From Escherichia phage fKMPT1, in sequence record PP620640: 64,000 bases of DNA; one strand, 5' to 3'. Each line of letters starts with the position of its first letter. The stretch's first letter is position 1. Below the pieces are notes generated by a model that saw nothing but the letters and a program-made list of their open reading frames with translations, ran no database searches and was not told where the DNA came from. This document shows positions 2,994 to 63,778 of the stretch, one piece after another. Both the position numbers and the translations under genes were made by a program.

Positions 2994-3323
2994 TTAATCT
3001 GCCAGCCTTAAATTAAAATTAACACCAAATTTTTCGCATACTTCCAACATATACTCAAGCGAGACATTACCAGTGAGGTGGATTATGTTGGATACGCGAG
3101 CCTGAGAGATACCACAAATTTTAGCAACTTGCTCTTGAGAAAGACCTCTGGATTTAATCTCTCTCTTAAAACGATGTGCAACGAAGTCTCTCATTTCGTC
3201 TACATCCATTGGACAAATATAACTCTCCATTTCAGCCTCTCTGTCAACCTCCCAATCATCTTGTGGAGCATAAGGGTCAAAAGTCTCATTCATCTTTCTT
3301 CTTCCGTTTGCGTGAAGTGTCAA
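2994..3323 (-). CDS. helix-turn-helix (XRE-like) DNA-binding protein
   Basis: SQEQVAKICGISQARVSNI HTH-like segment. Confidence 0.55.
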   Translation of the reverse strand: MTLHANGRRKMNETFDPYAPQDDWEVDREAEMESYICPMDVDEMRDFVAHRFKREIKSRGLSQEQVAKICGISQARVSNIIHLTGNVSLEYMLEVCEKFGVNFNLRLAD

Positions 3324-56769: not shown

Positions 56770-58185
56770 ATGAGCGAATTATTTAAACATGCGCACCTTC
56801 ATGCAGGTCGAACTGAAAATGGTGCTGTAAACCATACTTCATCAATGTCTGCTCTTGTAGACTTTTACAAAGCTGCTGGTTCAAGCCGTAGCAATGTAGA
56901 AATCTTACCAGACTTGTTCTACAAAGCTTTGCGTGAGGATGTTGATGTTGCAGTTCGTATTTTGCTTCACATGCGAGATGTACGAGAAGGTATGGGTGAG
57001 CGTAAAGCCTTCAGAACTGTTTTACTTCAAGCAATCGAAGATAAAGTTTTAGAGCCTACACAGGTTCTTCGTATTATGGATAAGATTGCAGAACTTGGTC
57101 GTTTTGATGACTTCAAAATCTTCGTAGGTACTCGTTTTGAGACAGATGCCTTTAAGCATTTAGAAGCAGCATTACTAGACCCTGAGACAGCAGGTTTAGC
57201 AGCTAAGTGGTTACCACGAGTAAAACCACGACACAAACAGTTTGTAAAACGTTTCTGTAAGTTTGCTAACTTGAGTGAGAGAGAGTATCGCACACTGTTA
57301 TCTGTACTGTCTGATACTGTTGAGCAAAAAATCTCTGCTAATGAGTTTGGTAAGATTGACTACAGCAAGATTCCTTCACTCGCTGCTGCACGTTACCAAA
57401 AACTCTTTAACCGTAAAGATGGTGAACGCTACAAAGCTTACATCGAGTCACTCTCAAAAGGTGAGGCTAAGATTAACGCTGGTGCTGTTTACCCATACGA
57501 TGTGATTAAGTCTATCAAGTATGGTAATGCAGATGTTGCTAATGAGCAGTGGAAAGCACTACCAAACTGGATGGCAGAAGGTGAAAACATTTTGTGTATG
57601 ACTGATGTTTCAAGCTCAATGTCTTGGGTGAATCTTGGTTCAATCACTGCTCTTGATATTGGTGTATCTCTTGCCTTGTATGTAGCAGAACGCAACACTG
57701 GTTGCTTTAAGAATGAGTTAATGGTTTACTCAACAAACCCTCACTTCATCGAACTGAGTGGTGATTTACGAAACCGTCATCGTCAGGTAATGCGTCACGT
57801 TGAATATGGTTCAACTAACTTACAAGCAGCTTTTGACCGTATTCTTGAGGTAGGTAAGAGAAACAACTTGACTCAGAAAGATATGCCAAGTAAGCTTATT
57901 ATCTTCTCTGATATGGAGTTTAATCAGGTTGACGGTGCAAATGGTCGTACAAACTTTGAAGCAATTCAGAGTAAGTACAAAAAAGCTGGATACGAAATGC
58001 CACAACTGGTATTCTGGTACTTAGCAAACCGTAATGGTACTTGCGAAGTATCTGTTAAGGATAACGGTGTAGCAATGGTATCAGGGTTCTCTCCAGCCAC
58101 TTTAAAAGCTCTGCTTGGTGGTGAGAAGTTTGACCCAATCAGCGTAATGCTCAAAGCAGTAATGATTGACCGTTACATCTGGTAA
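56770..58185 (+). CDS. vWA-domain protein with helical N-terminal domain (TROVE/Ro60-like or DUF2828-like candidate)
   Basis: 471 aa; helical N-terminus, then MIDAS-like DVSSSM and SDMEF vWA features. Confidence 0.5.
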   Translation: MSELFKHAHLHAGRTENGAVNHTSSMSALVDFYKAAGSSRSNVEILPDLFYKALREDVDVAVRILLHMRDVREGMGERKAFRTVLLQAIEDKVLEPTQVLRIMDKIAELGRFDDFKIFVGTRFETDAFKHLEAALLDPETAGLAAKWLPRVKPRHKQFVKRFCKFANLSEREYRTLLSVLSDTVEQKISANEFGKIDYSKIPSLAAARYQKLFNRKDGERYKAYIESLSKGEAKINAGAVYPYDVIKSIKYGNADVANEQWKALPNWMAEGENILCMTDVSSSMSWVNLGSITALDIGVSLALYVAERNTGCFKNELMVYSTNPHFIELSGDLRNRHRQVMRHVEYGSTNLQAAFDRILEVGKRNNLTQKDMPSKLIIFSDMEFNQVDGANGRTNFEAIQSKYKKAGYEMPQLVFWYLANRNGTCEVSVKDNGVAMVSGFSPATLKALLGGEKFDPISVMLKAVMIDRYIW

Positions 58186-58203: not shown

Positions 58204-58232
58204 TTGACAATGTGTTTAATACCCTTTAATAT
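58204..58232 (+). promoter_or_regulatory. sigma70-like promoter upstream of tRNA array
   Basis: TTGACA - 17 nt - TAATAT. Confidence 0.5.
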
Positions 58233-58350: not shown

Positions 58351-58427
58351 CTCTGTTTAGCTCAGCTTGGTAGAGCGTTCCGTTTGGGGCGGTAAGGCCG
58401 GAGGTTCAAGTCCTCCAACAGAGACCA
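58351..58427 (+). tRNA. tRNA-Pro (anticodon TGG)
   Basis: hand-folded cloverleaf, GGTTCAAGTCC T-arm, encoded CCA. Confidence 0.7.
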
Positions 58428-58434
58428 AATTAAT

Positions 58435-58512
58435 GTTCCAGTAGACAAAATGGTAAAGTCACCACTCTTTCAAAGTGGATATTTGAGGGTTCAAATCCCT
58501 TCTGGAACGCCA
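58435..58512 (+). tRNA. tRNA-Glu (anticodon TTC)
   Basis: perfect acceptor and anticodon stems, encoded CCA. Confidence 0.7.
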
Positions 58513-58603
58513 GTTTTGACAGAAGACCAATTGCAGCAAACTTAATCTTATTCATCTGACACGAAATCGGACAAAGAAGAGATTTGGTCTGGTCATTAAG
58601 AAT

Positions 58604-58680
58604 TGCGGGTATAGAGAAAGGGCGTCTCACATGTCTCATTAGCATGGTATCGGCAGGTTCGACTCCTGCACCCGCCTCCA
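58604..58680 (+). tRNA. tRNA-Met (anticodon CAT), 1:72 mismatch
   Basis: T-arm and anticodon arm clear; acceptor 5' boundary uncertain. Confidence 0.55.
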
Positions 58681-58763
58681 AATTTACAGAAGACCGTTTA
58701 CAGCAATATTTATTAAATTTTTAGCGGAAAAATTGAAAGATACGGTCTGGTAATACTAAACAT

Positions 58764-58840
58764 GGTTAGGAAGCACATAAGGTATGTGCGGTCGCCTGTT
58801 AAGCGAATGGCACAGGGTTCGAATCCCTGACTAACCGCCA
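58764..58840 (+). tRNA. tRNA-Asn (anticodon GTT)
   Basis: cloverleaf with perfect T-stem, CCA encoded. Confidence 0.65.
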
Positions 58841-58909
58841 AATTTAGGAGAGAAGCGATTGCTCACCGATTTGTAAGGTGCAAGTCCTTAGCCTGAATAG
58901 AAATTAAAT

Positions 58910-58997
58910 GTGTCGTTATCCCGTAGATGGTAGCGGTGGGGACTGTAAATCCCTTGTCATTGAGACTCGGTAGGTTCGACTCCTACACGGCACACCA
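58910..58997 (+). tRNA. tRNA-Tyr (anticodon GTA), long variable arm
   Basis: 88 nt type II structure, anticodon loop CTGTAAA. Confidence 0.7.
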
Positions 58998-59003
58998 AAT
59001 AAA

Positions 59004-59081
59004 GGTTATGTAGTTTAATCTGGTTAAAATACTCCCCTGTCACGGGAGATGATGAGGGTTCGAATCCCTTCGTAACCGCCA
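59004..59081 (+). tRNA. tRNA-Asp (anticodon GTC)
   Basis: anticodon arm ctccc-CTGTCAC-gggag. Confidence 0.7.
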
Positions 59082-59537
59082 AATTATAATAAGTATTTCA
59101 AAATGATGTTTTGAGAGGGCTATTTAGCCCCTCCCTTAAAGAGTTCTTACGAGTATTCTTTAAAGGAGCAGAAGACCAAATTCAGCAAGAACGTATGAAA
59201 TTTCAAGCCAATTTAATTTTGAAAATTTAAAACTTGGTCTGGCTCAACAAATTTACAGAAGACCGTTTACAGCAAAACTTAAACAATCTATTTCTCGGTA
59301 AAGAAAAGGCGAAGGTTCGATTCCTTCACTCGGCAGATGTCGAGTTGGTGTAATGGTAGCACTTAAGATGATAAACAACGGTCTGGTAATTGTCTTTGCA
59401 GTAGCTTATGTGGCTAATTATGTCGTCCCATGAGTGCCGATGAATTTCCTTAGCATGATTCTAGATTAGCTTAATAGGAAATGACTCTACAGACCCTTTA
59501 GCAAGGTCTGCGTAGGTTACTGCAAAGATAATTTAAT

Positions 59538-59613
59538 GGAAGTGTAGCAGAATGGTGATGCGGCAGACTTTTAATCTGACAGGCGATGGGTTCGAATCCC
59601 TCCACTTCTACCA
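59538..59613 (+). tRNA. tRNA-Lys (anticodon TTT)
   Basis: cloverleaf; weak T-stem; paralogous to 60859-60934. Confidence 0.55.
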
Positions 59614-59617
59614 ATAT

Positions 59618-59694
59618 GGTTCAGTCGCAGATAAGGTAATGCAGGGGTTTCATAAGCCCTATGAATGTGGGTTCGATTCCCATCTGAACCTCCA
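59618..59694 (+). tRNA. tRNA-Met/Ile2 (anticodon CAT)
   Basis: perfect acceptor stem, anticodon loop TTCATAA. Confidence 0.65.
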
Positions 59695-59696
59695 AT

Positions 59697-59771
59697 TGTG
59701 GGTTAGCATAAATGGTAATGCAAACGGCTGATAACCGTTAGAAGAGGGTTCGATACCCTCACCTACAACCA
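59697..59771 (+). tRNA. tRNA-Ile (anticodon GAT)
   Basis: anticodon arm aacgg-CTGATAA-ccgtt perfect. Confidence 0.7.
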
Positions 59772-59786
59772 ATTTCAATAAAGTTG

Positions 59787-59815
59787 TTGACATTGAGATG
59801 TGACTACTTTATAGT
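59787..59815 (+). promoter_or_regulatory. sigma70-like promoter inside tRNA region
   Basis: TTGACA - 17 nt - TATAGT. Confidence 0.55.
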
Positions 59816-60109
59816 AACTGAAAATGATTCAGCATATGTATAATTCAAACACCAATACATGAGCGTTAGACGTAACACAATGTGGGGAAATTTGTTGTAC
59901 ATATTCTGAATAGTTTTCGTTGCGTAGCGTCTATTTTGCAAAGTTAAAATAAATGCAAACGACAATGTTTTTCTGGCAGTAGCTTGATAGGCTAAACACC
60001 AGTGAGGTCTTCCAACCCCTCATCAAAGAATTTGGCGTACTAGCCCACGGTATGATTAATAAGGTGGGCATCTTTAAGGGCTTTCTAAGAGAGTCTTTAA
60101 AGATAATTA

Positions 60110-60191
60110 CGGGGCGTATCTCAGCTGTCTTCTAAACAGCCGTTAACCGAGTAAGTGGAGTATGCGGGTTCGAGTCCTGCCGCCTCGACCA
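60110..60191 (+). tRNA. tRNA-like gene, non-canonical (no D-arm; anticodon-like hairpin with TCT)
   Basis: perfect acceptor and T-arm with CCA; internal hairpin gctgt-CTTCTAA-acagc; only 7 nt where D-arm should be. Confidence 0.4.
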
Positions 60192-60334
60192 ATTTAGTTA
60201 GCAGATTACTTAGACGACCTTATCGGGTCTTCCTGTAGGGAGGTGGTCTGTATCTCATGTTTTCCAGAACATGTAAATAATCTGAGAAGGGGCTTTACAG
60301 TGTTGTGAAAATACGGTAAGCTTCGAACTATAAT

Positions 60335-60417
60335 GTGGGACGATGTTAAGACTCTAAGGCATGAGCAACGGCTTCCAACACCGTTTCAAAGGGGTTCAAA
60401 TCCTCCGTCCCATGCCA
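60335..60417 (+). tRNA. tRNA-like gene, isotype undetermined (9-nt loop hairpin containing CCA/TCC)
   Basis: acceptor/T-arm/CCA canonical; internal hairpin aacgg-CTTCCAACA-ccgtt; D region irregular. Confidence 0.4.
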
Positions 60418-60430
60418 AAGTCTTATTAGG

Positions 60431-60518
60431 GGTAGGTAGCGGCTAATGGTAGCCAAACTGTCTTGAAAACAGTTGCCACTGTAGAGATACGGTGAGGGTT
60501 CGACTCCTTTACTTACCG
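60431..60518 (+). tRNA. tRNA-Ser (anticodon TGA), long variable arm; CCA not encoded
   Basis: anticodon arm actgt-CTTGAAA-acagt perfect; 20-nt variable arm. Confidence 0.65.
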
Positions 60519-60773
60519 CCTAATAAGATTTACACCGTCCATGCTCGCTCGCATTTTCGGTTTATCCCTCGTGTTGTCGTACACTTTGATAAAGCACCTA
60601 GTAGGTGTCACGGAGAAGAGATAATATCAAGCTCTCCAAAGGTTCTAGTCACCGGATTAAACAAGACTATGCAAAGACCTATTTAGGTCTTTTTAGAGGG
60701 CTTCTAAGGTTATTACAGCTTGTTGTGGAACCTTGTTGCTTAGGTTCTTAGAAGTTCTCTAAAAAGATTTAAT

Positions 60774-60851
60774 GGGAGATTGACGGTAATTGGTAAACCT
60801 ATCTCGCTTAGAACGAGATGTTTGAGGGTTCGAATCCCTTGTCTCCTACCA
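60774..60851 (+). tRNA. tRNA with Leu anticodon TAG, short variable arm
   Basis: anticodon arm tctcg-CTTAGAA-cgaga perfect; type I length; A73. Confidence 0.55.
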
Positions 60852-60858
60852 AATTAAT

Positions 60859-60934
60859 GCAGGTGTAGCAAAATGGTTATGCGGCTGACTCTTAATCAGT
60901 AAGACGATGGGTTCAATTCCCTCCACCTGTACCA
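60859..60934 (+). tRNA. tRNA-Lys (anticodon CTT)
   Basis: anticodon loop CTCTTAA; encoded CCA. Confidence 0.6.
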
Positions 60935-60940
60935 AACATT

Positions 60941-61016
60941 GGGGTCATAGTTTATATGGTTAAAATTCGAGTTTTGCAAACTTGGGAACTGAGTTCAATT
61001 CTCAGTGACTCCACCA
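60941..61016 (+). tRNA. tRNA-Ala (anticodon TGC)
   Basis: G3:U70 wobble in acceptor stem, anticodon loop TTTGCAA, perfect T-stem. Confidence 0.75.
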
Positions 61017-61022
61017 ATTAGT

Positions 61023-61097
61023 GCATCCATAGTTTAAACGGGAAAATTACAGTCTTCCAAACTGAGGTTGAGGGTTCGATTCCCTCTGGATGCTCCA
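61023..61097 (+). tRNA. tRNA-Gly (anticodon TCC)
   Basis: perfect acceptor stem, U73 discriminator, anticodon loop CTTCCAA. Confidence 0.7.
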
Positions 61098-61103
61098 AAC
61101 AAT

Positions 61104-61180
61104 GCTGCTTTCGTATAATTGGCTATTACACATCCCTTGTAAGGATGGAGATGCGGGTTCAAGTCCTGTGAGCAGCACCA
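61104..61180 (+). tRNA. tRNA-Thr (anticodon TGT)
   Basis: anticodon arm catcc-CTTGTAA-ggatg perfect. Confidence 0.7.
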
Positions 61181-61275
61181 ATTTAGAGGTCAAGTGAAAG
61201 ACCGCTGGTGTCAACTGAAGACCGTAACAAATTCCACGGAGTTGAGTTAGCGGCACAACTTCAGACCTCTTTCAT

Positions 61276-61350
61276 ACTCGCTTAGTTTATATGGTAAAAC
61301 ATCACCCTTACAAGATGAAGAAAAAGGTTCAAGTCCTTTAGTGAGTACCA
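61276..61350 (+). tRNA. tRNA-Val (anticodon TAC)
   Basis: perfect D- and T-stems, anticodon loop CTTACAA. Confidence 0.65.
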
Positions 61351-61351
61351 T

Positions 61352-61429
61352 GTTCCAGTATCCCAATTGGCAGAGGATGCAAGCTCAAACCTTGTACTAG
61401 TGACGGTTCGAATCCGTCTTGGAACACCA
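61352..61429 (+). tRNA. tRNA with Leu anticodon CAA, short variable arm
   Basis: anticodon arm gcaag-CTCAAAC-cttgt; type I length; A73. Confidence 0.55.
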
Positions 61430-61543
61430 ATTTTAGGAGAGCACTATGAGTGATAAGTCAATAGCAAAAAAGTTTAGAGCGTCATACCTAAACAGACGTA
61501 AAAACAAAGATTGTGAAAAACTGTATGGTGTTCTTGTAGGTAA

Positions 61544-61619
61544 GCAGGATTAGTTCAAATGGATAGAGCAGCAGTCTACGAAGCTGTTAATAGGGGTTCG
61601 AATCCCTTATCCTGCGCCA
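61544..61619 (+). tRNA. tRNA-Arg (anticodon ACG)
   Basis: perfect acceptor stem; anticodon loop CTACGAA. Confidence 0.65.
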
Positions 61620-61638
61620 ATTTAAAGAGGCTATTTAG

Positions 61639-62196
61639 ATGAGATATTTGAAGTATGCTTCATGGATTTTCTTAGCTTTGTTAGAGCCATTTGCAGCAAT
61701 CTTAGCAGTTATCTTAGCACCTTTCGTGGTTCCATTCTACAGTGAGAAGAAAGGACATCTACCTTTCGGCTTCAGATGGATGGAGACATACGACAACCCA
61801 ATTGATGGTGATGAAGGTCATGTCGAACGATGGGCTAAGATTAGAAAGATTGGTAAGCTGGGTGTCTACATGCAGAGAGTTGGATGGCTCTGGAGAAACA
61901 AAGCTTATAACTTCTCTTACCATGTATTAGGAAGAGATGTAAAAGATGTTACTAAGTGGAAAGGCAATATCAACGTAAGTTCTAACCCTGAAGATAATCA
62001 GACAGGTTATCTCCTAATGTGGAACAGTAATGCTTGGGGATTATTCGCTTTTATCCCATCAATTAAAGTCTTTGGTAAACAATTCTACTGGAGAATTTAT
62101 ATTGGGTGGAAGCTAAAAAGTGTTGTCCCAGAAGAAAGAGCATTCTCAAGGGAAAGAGTTATGTTGGCATTCTTTATTCATCCACTAAGAAAGTAA
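61639..62196 (+). CDS. membrane protein embedded in tRNA array
   Basis: 185 aa; N-terminal hydrophobic helix, aromatic-rich C-terminus, AAAGAGG RBS. Confidence 0.55.
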   Translation: MRYLKYASWIFLALLEPFAAILAVILAPFVVPFYSEKKGHLPFGFRWMETYDNPIDGDEGHVERWAKIRKIGKLGVYMQRVGWLWRNKAYNFSYHVLGRDVKDVTKWKGNINVSSNPEDNQTGYLLMWNSNAWGLFAFIPSIKVFGKQFYWRIYIGWKLKSVVPEERAFSRERVMLAFFIHPLRK

Positions 62197-62204
62197 AGAT
62201 TTAA

Positions 62205-62280
62205 AGGGGATTAGTTTACAAGGTTAAAACCTCGGTCTTTGAAATCGAAGAAGTTGGTTCAATTCCAACATCCCCCGCCA
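62205..62280 (+). tRNA. tRNA-Gln (anticodon TTG)
   Basis: perfect D-, anticodon and T-stems; 1:72 mismatch. Confidence 0.65.
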
Positions 62281-62282
62281 AT

Positions 62283-62361
62283 GCTCCATTACTCCAATTG
62301 GCAGAGAGGCCAGACTTAAAATCTGTGTTATGTATCGGTTCGAATCCGATATGGAGTACCA
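62283..62361 (+). tRNA. tRNA with Leu anticodon TAA, short variable arm
   Basis: anticodon loop CTTAAAA; perfect T-stem; A73. Confidence 0.55.
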
Positions 62362-62366
62362 AATTT

Positions 62367-62442
62367 AGCGGTATAGCATAACTGGCAATGCAGCAGTCTC
62401 TGAAGCTGTCCTATTAAGGTTCAAATCCTTATGCCGCTGCCA
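62367..62442 (+). tRNA. tRNA-Gln (anticodon CTG)
   Basis: perfect D- and T-stems; anticodon loop CTCTGAA. Confidence 0.65.
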
Positions 62443-62473
62443 CTTCTAAGGGTTCTTACGAGAGTCCTTAAAT

Positions 62474-62549
62474 GTGGCCTTATCATAAACGGTAATGACC
62501 CATGCTGTGAACATGGTCTATACGGGTTCAAATCCCGTAGGTCACCCCA
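62474..62549 (+). tRNA. tRNA-His (anticodon GTG)
   Basis: all four stems near-perfect; C73 discriminator. Confidence 0.75.
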
Positions 62550-62554
62550 ATTTA

Positions 62555-62631
62555 TAGTCCAAGTAGCTTATATGGTTAAAGCGCGTGTCTGAAAAACATG
62601 AGAAGAGGGTTCAAATCCCACTGGACTACCA
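62555..62631 (+). tRNA. tRNA-Phe (anticodon GAA), boundaries approximate
   Basis: anticodon arm cgtgt-CTGAAAA-acatg; acceptor/D junction irregular. Confidence 0.5.
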
Positions 62632-62646
62632 ATTTCAAAGGTGCTT

Positions 62647-63382
62647 AATGAAAGAGATGACAGAACAAGGTAAGGAGATTTTTAATCTCTTAAAAACTGG
62701 TAAAGGGTTTTCTAACCCCCTTATTACTGGTGCAGCAGTTCTCGGTGGAACCGTAGCTGCCTCTACATCACTTGTAAGCTCTATTAGCTCTGTAACAGAC
62801 CCTACAATAAAAGATAAGCTTGTTGCTGCTGGGCTTACAACAGTTCTGCTTAGCAGCTTTACAACGAGTCTGACAAGCACTACAGCAACTACTAAGACCC
62901 TAACAGACTATGGTCAAAAGTCCATTGATGAGTTTTCATCACGTATGCAGGTAGCAAAAGGTTATTCTAATGCTATGGGTGCAGCAGGTGAACAAGTTGG
63001 CTGTACACCATTTAGTGGTATTATGGGTGTTGCTACAGAGTATGGTCAAAAAGCTATGGATACGATTAACAGCGCACTAGATGGCGTTAATGATGTATTA
63101 AGCGACTTACAAGATGCTATTGACAAAGGTCTTGATACTGTTTCTGATTTAGCTAACCAAGCTGTTAGCAAGATTAATGAAGGTATCTCGAAGATTACAG
63201 CTTATGCAGATGAAGTTGTGCAGATGATTGAAGAAGAAGCTGCCCTTATTGCAGAGTACCTTAAAACGAATATCAATGGGTTCTTAGCAGGTATCTTACC
63301 AGACTGGTTTGATGATGCTTGTAAAACTGGTGTGATTGATACTATTGCAACACCAGAAATGAAGAACGCATTACAGAAATAA
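62647..63382 (+). CDS. hypothetical Ser/Thr/Ala-rich protein
   Basis: about 245 aa from ATG after AAAGG; track ORF start 62585 overlaps tRNA-Phe and is unlikely. Confidence 0.5.
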
Positions 63383-63383
63383 C

Positions 63384-63476
63384 GGAAGATTAACCCTAAA
63401 AGGTAAGGGAGCAGTTTGCTAAACTGCCAGTAGCTGAGAAATCGGTGTACCAGTTCAAGTCTGGTATCTTCCTCCA
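63384..63476 (+). tRNA. tRNA-Ser (anticodon GCT), long variable arm
   Basis: 93 nt; anticodon arm gcagt-TTGCTAA-actgc perfect; T-stem perfect; CCA encoded. Confidence 0.7.
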
Positions 63477-63480
63477 ATTT

Positions 63481-63556
63481 GAATCCGTGACAGAAATGGC
63501 TATGTGCCTGTCTGCAAAACAGGTTTATAAGGGTTCGAGTCCCTTCGGATTCTCCA
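63481..63556 (+). tRNA. tRNA-Cys (anticodon GCA)
   Basis: perfect acceptor stem, U73, anticodon arm cctgt-CTGCAAA-acagg. Confidence 0.7.
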
Positions 63557-63778
63557 AGTTATTTTACTCTCTCTCAATTAAAATAATAATAATGCCCTGC
63601 TATAAGTATTCTTCCTTTCGCTACCGAAGAGTATTTTTAGACAGGGCTTTTTTACAGAGTTATACTTTATAAGAAGCCTTATACAGTATGTCTCTGACGT
63701 ACATTGTGGTTTCTCCTTGACGGTCTCTGTGCCGTCTTTTTTAAGGGGAAACAAGATTAATTATTTGGAGAAAACATA

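Follow-up and report, generated by a model that had tools for sequence, protein, structure and literature searches.

Three tRNA genes with the leucine anticodons UAG, CAA and UAA, lying in an array of 25 tRNA genes in a 64,000-nucleotide (nt) stretch of DNA from Escherichia phage fKMPT1 (sequence record PP620640; the whole stretch is referred to here as the window), lack the long variable arm of type II tRNAs. We consider it likely that they are functional type I leucine isoacceptors, which would be transcribed together with the other array genes, matured by the host, charged by host leucyl-tRNA synthetase (LeuRS) through A73 and the tRNA elbow, and used for decoding UUA, UUG and CUA. Gene structure, conservation, covariation, identity elements, the leucine meaning of the codons concerned and a wide distribution are shown here and support this reading. 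All three genes carry tRNA-Leu annotations already, and type I tRNA-Leu as such is a known kind; its members in enterobacterial phages, and their frequency in viruses, appear undescribed.

Structure, conservation and covariation

ARAGORN and the Rfam tRNA model (RF00005, gathering score of 29 bits, exceeded by all three genes) place the genes at exactly the positions at which a sequence-only reading had folded them by hand into cloverleaves of 78–79 nt (Table 1). The anticodon loops drawn by ARAGORN, CUUAGAA, CUCAAAC and CUUAAAA for Leu(UAG), Leu(CAA) and Leu(UAA), respectively, are those given in that reading, and each gene has A73 followed by an encoded CCA. The variable loops, put there at 5–7 nt, are 5, 6 and 7 nt in canonical 44–48 numbering; ARAGORN reports 4, 5 and 7 nt, one fewer in two genes because a sixth anticodon-stem pair is counted there.

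Table 1 Leucine tRNA genes of the window, the array that holds them and its type II tRNA genes.
Feature	Position	Strand	Evidence
tRNA-Leu(UAG), type I, 78 nt	60774..60851	+	ARAGORN; Rfam RF00005, 44.5 bits
tRNA-Leu(CAA), type I, 78 nt	61352..61429	+	ARAGORN; Rfam, 43.6 bits
tRNA-Leu(UAA), type I, 79 nt	62283..62361	+	ARAGORN; Rfam, 47.5 bits
tRNA array, 25 genes, holding the three Leu genes	58351..63556	+	ARAGORN; also annotated in GenBank OR711204
tRNA-Tyr(GUA), 88 nt, type II, long arm retained; internal comparator	58910..58997	+	ARAGORN
tRNA-Ser(UGA), 90 nt, type II; internal comparator	60431..60520	+	ARAGORN
tRNA-Ser(GCU), 93 nt, type II; internal comparator	63384..63476	+	ARAGORN

The variable region of Leu(UAG) is UGUUU, with U48 as its last base, and its D arm is irregular: the stem is GGU/ACC, the loop is AAUUGGUAA and there is one additional nucleotide. 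Leu(CAA) has a D stem of three base pairs (bp; UCC/GGA), an 11-nt D loop, CAAUUGGCAGA, and a variable region that again ends in U48. Leu(UAA) starts with G1:U72 and combines a 3-bp D stem (CUC/GAG) and the same D loop, CAAUUGGCAGA, with the 7-nt variable loop GUUAUGU (U48). With canonical type II tRNA-Leu the three share a leucine anticodon and A73, and the long arm, a stem-loop of more than 10 nt, is absent; a leucine anticodon, a variable loop of about 4–7 nt and an otherwise complete cloverleaf make them type I.

Software folding by ARAGORN returns the same anticodons, and alternative boundaries uncover no longer variable arm in any of the three genes. A boundary or anticodon artefact is ruled out by the agreement of ARAGORN, Rfam and the GenBank annotation on coordinates and anticodons. 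ARAGORN finds no further tRNA-Leu among the 25 genes, in line with the earlier statement that the array holds none of canonical type II, and a low-threshold Rfam scan of the array gaps, whose only match is tRNA-Sec-like, detects no hidden degenerate type II tRNA-Leu.

Over 60400–63600 the window matches Salmonella phage fBSPA4 (OR711204, Felixounavirus) at 100% identity, and the record of that phage lists the same three genes as tRNA-Leu with identical coordinates; identity to Felix O1 is about 96%. The region matches 293 phage records, nearly all from Felixounavirus or other Ounavirinae. The leucine genes are kept in about 260–310 phage records, with identities of at least 95% in numbers of genomes from roughly 70, for Leu(UAG), up to 250. 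Leu(CAA) is at least 97% identical in about 250 Ounavirinae records and Leu(UAA) at least 99% identical in 215. More distant recognizable relatives are Leu(CAA) in Erwinia phages and Leu(UAG) in Pectobacterium phage Arno18. Comparison of the Leu(CAA) genes of fBSPA4 and phiEa21-4 shows changes on both sides in five of seven acceptor pairs and in the majority of pairs of the anticodon and T stems, and an identical D arm.

Covariation was used in place of single-sequence folding, which is commonly uninformative for tRNA genes. An alignment of 71 distinct short Leu(UAA) sequences, from viral contigs (among the matches listed) and reference phages, was evaluated against a cloverleaf with a 3-bp D stem and a short variable loop. 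Pairing is retained in 98.4% of cells, and two-sided changes occur at 19 of the 20 pairs (447 cells); this result is not matched by any of 500 shuffles, and sliding of the partner strand lowers pairing to 36–47%. There is no variation at T8, A14 or G19, and conservation is 90% or more at A15, G18, A20a/A21 and U48, none of these positions being fixed by the search pattern. The most frequent first pair is G1:U72, as in E. coli leuZ.

Within Felixounavirus, Leu(UAG) occurs as alleles of about 90% identity (window versus UAB_Phi87, Si3 and FG1m), all differences falling in the anticodon stem and being mostly compensatory; pairing is retained in ATCTCG/CGAGAT, ACCATC/GTTGGT and ACCTCG/CGAGGT. This pattern recalls phage tRNAs that evade anticodon-stem nucleases. 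In Si3 (locus 3001–3079) there is a single leucine gene whose 5′ part, comprising the acceptor strand and D arm, is of Leu(CAA) type and whose remainder is Leu(UAA), and in FG1m (locus ~3001–3078) the 3′ strands of T-stem and acceptor in a Leu(CAA) gene are those of Leu(UAA). Both chimeras still pair at six of seven acceptor positions, and they look like products of deletions of about 0.9 kilobases (kb) by recombination between the paralogous leucine genes (window 61352–62361).

Leucine identity and codon meaning

The leucine identity set of E. coli (Asahara 1993/1998, Larkin 2002 and Du & Wang 2003, as cited in PMC9976931 and in the introduction of PMC6614811) comprises A73, A15–U48, G18G19, A20a and the tertiary pairs that link the D loop to the T loop (PMC9976931). 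By the accounts given in PMC9976931 and in that introduction, the anticodon and the long arm are dispensable and arm-less variants are still active. All three window tRNAs have U8, A14, A15, G18G19, A20a, U48, the T loop UUCGAAU and A73, and with them the combinations U8–A14, A15–U48, G18G19 with U55 and C56, and U54–A58.

The host counterparts leuZ, leuX and leuW share with the phage tRNAs the anticodons UAA, CAA and UAG, A73, U8, A14, A15, G18G19, A20a and U48, as well as a 3-bp D stem with an 11-nt loop (NAAUYGGYAGA) and G1:U72 in the UAA isoacceptor. From position 8 onwards the host genes read U8 G9, GYG, RAAUYGGUAGA, CRC, and Leu(CAA) and Leu(UAA) read U8 A9, UCC or CUC, CAAUUGGCAGA, GGA or GAG, so the D-arm geometry is that of the host, with A14, A15, G18, G19 and A20a in register. 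Leu(UAG) retains AAUUGGUAA, and its additional D-arm nucleotide is common to Arno18 and not T5. What separates the two groups is the variable arm, 13–15 nt and stem-forming in the host tRNAs, which are 85–87 nt long (87, 85 and 85 nt for leuZ, leuX and leuW of E. coli K-12), against 78–79 nt in the phage.

The anticodon loops differ as well. The host Leu(UAG) loop is UUUAGGU, with G37, the m1G37 site of TrmD, whereas the phage loop (60805–60811) has A37, and this loop, CUUAGAA, is common to T5 and Arno18. In Leu(CAA), C38 of the loop CUCAAAC (61383–61389) disrupts the A36-A37-A38 motif used by MiaA. To judge from these loops, phage Leu(UAG) and Leu(CAA) may be modified differently from their host counterparts.

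The marks of the two other anticodon-independent synthetases are missing from the three genes: the long arm recognized by SerRS, and the G3:U70 pair of AlaRS, which is found in the array's own tRNA-Ala; the 3:70 pairs of the leucine genes are G-C, U-A and U-A. In a comparison with 1155 tRNAs gathered in this analysis, made after masking of the anticodon loop and deletion of the variable region, tRNA-Leu accounted for 37 (CAA), 36 (UAA) and 18 (UAG) of the 40 nearest neighbours, the base rate being 21%. For near-identical genes of Shigella phage Sf14, tRNAscan-SE isotype models put leucine first, with scores of 67.4, 49.1 and 60.2, in a study in which the variable arm goes unmentioned (PMC12482277). 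Identity elements, covariation, nearest neighbours and the Sf14 scores all favour the first of the two explanations offered by the sequence-only reading, that of unusual type I leucine tRNAs.

The meaning of the codons was read from phage NrdA (19015–21249; Pfam RNR domains), aligned with 39 non-redundant homologues of at most 60% identity. Residues aligned with UUA, CUA and UUG positions are leucine in 84%, 86% and 52% of cases, respectively, the rest at UUG positions being Ile, Val or Met, and the conserved columns are leucine at six of six UUA, seven of seven CUA and five of seven UUG positions; control codons behave as expected. On this alignment UUA, UUG and CUA evidently mean leucine in the phage, and no change of the genetic code is indicated. 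The anticodons read sense leucine codons and the corresponding NrdA residues are leucine, features of neither suppressor nor recoding tRNAs.

Leucine codons in 50 long open reading frames of the window, which has a G+C content of 38.7%, are distributed as UUA 24%, UUG 15%, CUU 27%, CUC 7%, CUA 11% and CUG 16%. In enterobacteria CUG makes up about half of leucine codons and CUA is rare. Such a comparison of phage with host leucine codon usage had been proposed in the sequence-only reading as a check. The Sf14 study lists UUA and CUA among the codons that differ significantly between phage and host (PMC12482277). The three tRNAs match codons over-used by the phage, which fits an ordinary role in codon supply.

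Spread of type I tRNA-Leu and competing explanations

Short leucine tRNAs recur in other phages with tRNA arrays. By ARAGORN, Leu(UAA) and Leu(UAG) of T5 are both 77 nt and type I, Arno18 has a 78-nt Leu(UAG) and a 77-nt Leu(UAA), and in phiEa21-4 Leu(CAA), Leu(AAG) and Leu(UAA) are all 77–78 nt; in these three phages tRNA-Ser (89–93 nt) and tRNA-Tyr (83–91 nt) are long throughout. The leucine tRNAs of T5, and those of Ounavirinae other than the window phage, resemble those of the window in length (77–78 nt), type I class, A73, CCA, D-loop motif and the loop CUUAGAA. Leu(UAG) of T5 and BF23 is 75.7%, and that of Arno18 84.6%, identical to window Leu(UAG); the T5 gene differs in its regular 3-bp D stem and 11-nt loop, whereas an extra D-arm nucleotide is present in the Felix O1-type and Arno18 genes. 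Leu(UAA) of T4 is likewise an isoacceptor in the tRNA cluster of a virulent coliphage, but is 87 nt long and type II.

In IMG/VR, a pattern for short Leu(UAA) has at least 120 matches. Among the matches listed, ARAGORN confirms a short Leu(UAA) at 77 of 80 loci, and at these 80 loci 108 of 119 tRNA-Leu are short and all 44 tRNA-Ser and all 15 tRNA-Tyr are long. When the window, T5, Arno18 and phiEa21-4 are added to these listed loci, the pool of short leucine tRNAs numbers 118, with variable loops of 4–8 nt (5 nt in 79), U48 in 110, U8 in 117, 3-bp D stems with loops of 10–12 nt, and ACCA, including A73, in every one. An independently anchored sample of viral contigs, chosen by the unrelated tRNA-Arg(UCU), is small (39 tRNA-Leu) and shares four loci with the first set; it contains 26 long and 13 short tRNA-Leu (25 and 4 when the overlapping loci are omitted), and all of its 15 tRNA-Ser and 6 tRNA-Tyr are long. 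The premise of the sequence-only reading that tRNA-Leu is normally type II is accordingly correct for E. coli leuZ, leuX and leuW and for T4, and does not extend to T5, the Ounavirinae and many uncultured phages (13 of 39 short).

The same pattern has at least 120 matches in GTDB, searched with one genome per species. Among the matches listed, short tRNA-Leu is confirmed at 67 of 80 loci, at 50 of them as lone genes, and loci with few tRNA genes are mostly on contigs of Actinomycetota, many of them long, from Mycobacterium, Rhodococcus, Corynebacterium, Arthrobacter and other genera. These actinobacterial type I Leu(UAA) genes are lone, apparently chromosomal and 76–78 nt long (for example, in Mycobacterium sp., Corynebacterium yonathiae and Timonella sp.). 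Their D arm is GCC|CAAUUGGCAGA|GGC, the window's D loop being among the commonest in the listed matches, and among their variable loops CCAGU and ACAGU predominate, which are common to the pooled viral set and not to the window genes. The counts suggest that type I tRNA-Leu is far commoner in Actinomycetota than the single published case, from Streptomyces, implies. Eight further confirmed GTDB loci are large tRNA arrays in cyanobacteria and metagenome-assembled genomes (MAGs), in which tRNA-Leu is always short and tRNA-Ser and tRNA-Tyr always long. Bacterial arrays of this kind (Nostoc/Nostocales, Moorena, MAGs) have 12–29 genes, with tRNA-Leu of 74–79 nt in up to five anticodons and tRNA-Ser and tRNA-Tyr of 84–92 nt. 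That bacterial and phage arrays follow one short-leucine rule fits a shared mobile origin. By the features that they share, the window genes are members of a broad type I tRNA-Leu family.

By one published account, almost all bacterial tRNA-Leu is type II, and the type I form has been described in animal mitochondria and in a single bacterium, as Leu(CAA) of Streptomyces coelicolor, whose LeuRS is stated to be the only prokaryotic one handling both types (PMC6614811). The Streptomyces tRNA resembles the phage tRNAs in its class, its 5-nt variable loop ACAGC (ACAGU and CCAGU being commonest in the pooled set) and the importance of U8–A14, and differs in having C48 and in that A73 is no identity element for its own LeuRS, whereas the phage tRNAs have U48 and A73 (PMC6614811). 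The phage tRNAs must, moreover, work in an enterobacterial cell whose own tRNA-Leu is exclusively type II. Animal mitochondrial tRNA-Leu also lacks the long arm, with A73 and A14 as identity elements (PMC9976931); it differs in being served by a dedicated mitochondrial LeuRS and in its relaxed, often mismatched structure, the phage tRNAs having canonical D and T loops and depending on a bacterial LeuRS.

On the likely reading given at the outset, expression, leucylation by the host enzyme and a benefit from codon supply are the steps that we infer. The leucine genes would be transcribed as part of the array, whose tRNAs would be processed by host enzymes, and leucylated by the LeuRS of Salmonella or E. 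coli, which would read A73 and the elbow that the D and T loops form and not the anticodon or a long arm. The charged tRNAs would decode UUA and UUG (anticodon UAA), UUG (CAA) and CUA, with CUG and possibly CUU (UAG), codons that the AT-rich phage uses far more often than its host. Among the synthetases of type II tRNAs, LeuRS alone would tolerate loss of the arm, SerRS and bacterial TyrRS needing it, and the arm would be absent in tRNA-Leu only because of this tolerance; the repeated combination of short Leu with long Ser and long Tyr fits such a rule.

Several observations weigh against this reading. Type I Leu(CAA) of S. coelicolor is not leucylated by E. coli LeuRS, which is stated to charge 'only' type II (PMC6614811); C48 in place of U48 may explain that failure. 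In crystal structures the C-terminal domain of LeuRS contacts nucleotides 47f–47i of the long arm (PMC6614811), and charging without the arm may be less efficient because of these contacts. For Sf14 Leu(UAG), the leucine score is only narrowly above those of Ile2, Lys and Arg (PMC12482277). The same isoacceptor has the irregular D arm, with its extra or bulged nucleotide, and A37 rather than an m1G37 site, and minimum free energy folding of single sequences yields a cloverleaf for Leu(UAG) only, with weak z-scores of −1.4 to −1.6 for the three genes.

A table in PMC4810235 lists tRNA-Leu among the classically identified T5 tRNAs. The full-text literature yielded no description of short-armed tRNA-Leu in phages, the T5 papers of 1976–1980 lying outside that search, and the surveys of phage tRNAs and tRNA arrays that were examined do not mention it. 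The T5 tRNAs were reportedly identified by aminoacylation with E. coli enzymes; with both leucine genes of T5 being type I, this would be a direct precedent for charging of the short form.

A rather improbable alternative is that loss of the arm is itself adaptive, phage leucine tRNAs evading host defence or toxin nucleases, or a phage-induced attack on host tRNAs, that recognize the type II arm, with leucine decoding persisting during infection; it would supplement their function as leucine tRNAs rather than replace it. There are precedents: Septu/PtuAB and Retron-Eco7 act on tRNA-Tyr and cleave its variable loop (PMC13096335 and PMC12673091), human SLFN14 and SLFN11 cleave type II tRNAs selectively (PMC13245857), and phage tRNAs rescue cells from tRNA nucleases (PMC12445682). 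Type I tRNA-Leu is also found repeatedly in virulent phages that are unrelated and have large tRNA arrays, and the anticodon stem of Leu(UAG) is swapped wholesale between close phages, as expected of a nuclease target under diversifying pressure. However, our searches brought up no bacterial nuclease reported to attack tRNA-Leu at its variable arm, phage tRNA-Tyr, on whose kind the arm-cleaving PtuAB is known to act, is long in 21 of 21 cases, and the short form is the ordinary chromosomal Leu(UAA) of many Actinomycetota, where evasion is unneeded. Relaxed constraint together with genome economy accounts equally well for a loss confined to the one isotype in which the synthetase tolerates it.

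There is a slight chance that the genes are decaying or non-functional, or encode tRNA-like RNAs that act outside translation, for example as decoys, as primers or in the signalling of processing sites. In favour of this are Rfam scores near the bottom of the range for the array, the irregular D arm of Leu(UAG), the chimeric leucine genes of relatives Si3 and FG1m, and the marking of neighbouring genes as tRNA-OTHER or pseudo in some GenBank records; against it stand near-perfect conservation over hundreds of genomes, compensatory substitutions in every stem, invariance of the positions that matter for the L-shape and for LeuRS, the encoded CCA, and anticodons suited to codons over-used by the phage.

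The second explanation offered by the sequence-only reading, that the tRNAs are charged with another amino acid and recode UUA, UUG or CUA, could appeal to the loss of a class-defining feature and to the near-tied scores of Sf14 Leu(UAG) (Leu 67.4, Ile2 65.7, Lys 63.4; PMC12482277), but is the least probable of all and is rejected on the NrdA codon-to-residue test and the identity rules, since these codons align with leucine in distant homologues, host type II tRNA-Leu reads the same codons and mischarging would make decoding ambiguous, the leucine identity set is intact with the marks of SerRS and AlaRS absent, and the anticodon bases on which the remaining synthetases rely are not those found here (PMC9976931).

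If Salmonella and E. coli do charge the type I tRNA-Leu of Felix O1- and T5-like phages, which the conservation of these tRNAs implies, the statement that only type II is charged would be too narrow; bacterial tRNA-Leu is presented as type II in textbooks and in recent primary papers, and the short-armed form is common in viral contigs, mobile tRNA arrays and Actinomycetota. The phage tRNAs would then be natural substrates with which to define what LeuRS requires, U48 versus C48 being the obvious candidate. For annotation, isotype models trained on type II leucine tRNAs give poor scores and sometimes the label 'OTHER'. The genes also bear on ideas of why phages carry tRNAs, and if the arm were lost in evasion of a nuclease, one so far unknown, with the short copies still accepted by LeuRS, this would mirror in prokaryotes the cleavage of type II tRNAs by Schlafen proteins.

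The array and its neighbourhood

Upstream of the array are TTGACA promoter-like sites at 58204 and 58295, and downstream is a terminator-like hairpin at 63719–63736, all of them consensus matches only. Among the open reading frames tested near the array, none was seen to encode a phage LeuRS or a tRNA-modifying enzyme, a further 23 kb beyond the window lying outside the scope of the analysis.

Traces of further tRNA genes may be present in the gaps. Inspection of the raw sequence shows a T-arm-like hairpin, GAAGG-TTCGATT-CCTTC, at 59309–59329, and the tRNA-Sec-like match of the low-threshold scan is a weak one at 60109–60188 (23 bits, E = 0.35); both may be remnants of lost tRNA genes. UAB_Phi87 and similar relatives have an additional tRNA-Arg(UCU) between the Ile and Ser genes, and alignment of this gene with the corresponding gap (59772–60431) gives a short, weak local match only, at 60363–60404.

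Two conserved protein genes without assigned function lie within the array on the plus strand: 61639–62196, which matches phrog_2143, and 62585–63382, which matches phrog_2114 and, more weakly, a 'GTP-binding domain' family. Directly upstream of the array, also on the plus strand, is a gene for a 471-residue protein (56770–58185) with the Pfam domains DUF2828 and DUF7788; it matches phrog_850, 'RNA-binding protein', and its relatives are annotated as vWFA protein. Its place beside the array suggests a possible role in the handling of tRNA or other RNA.

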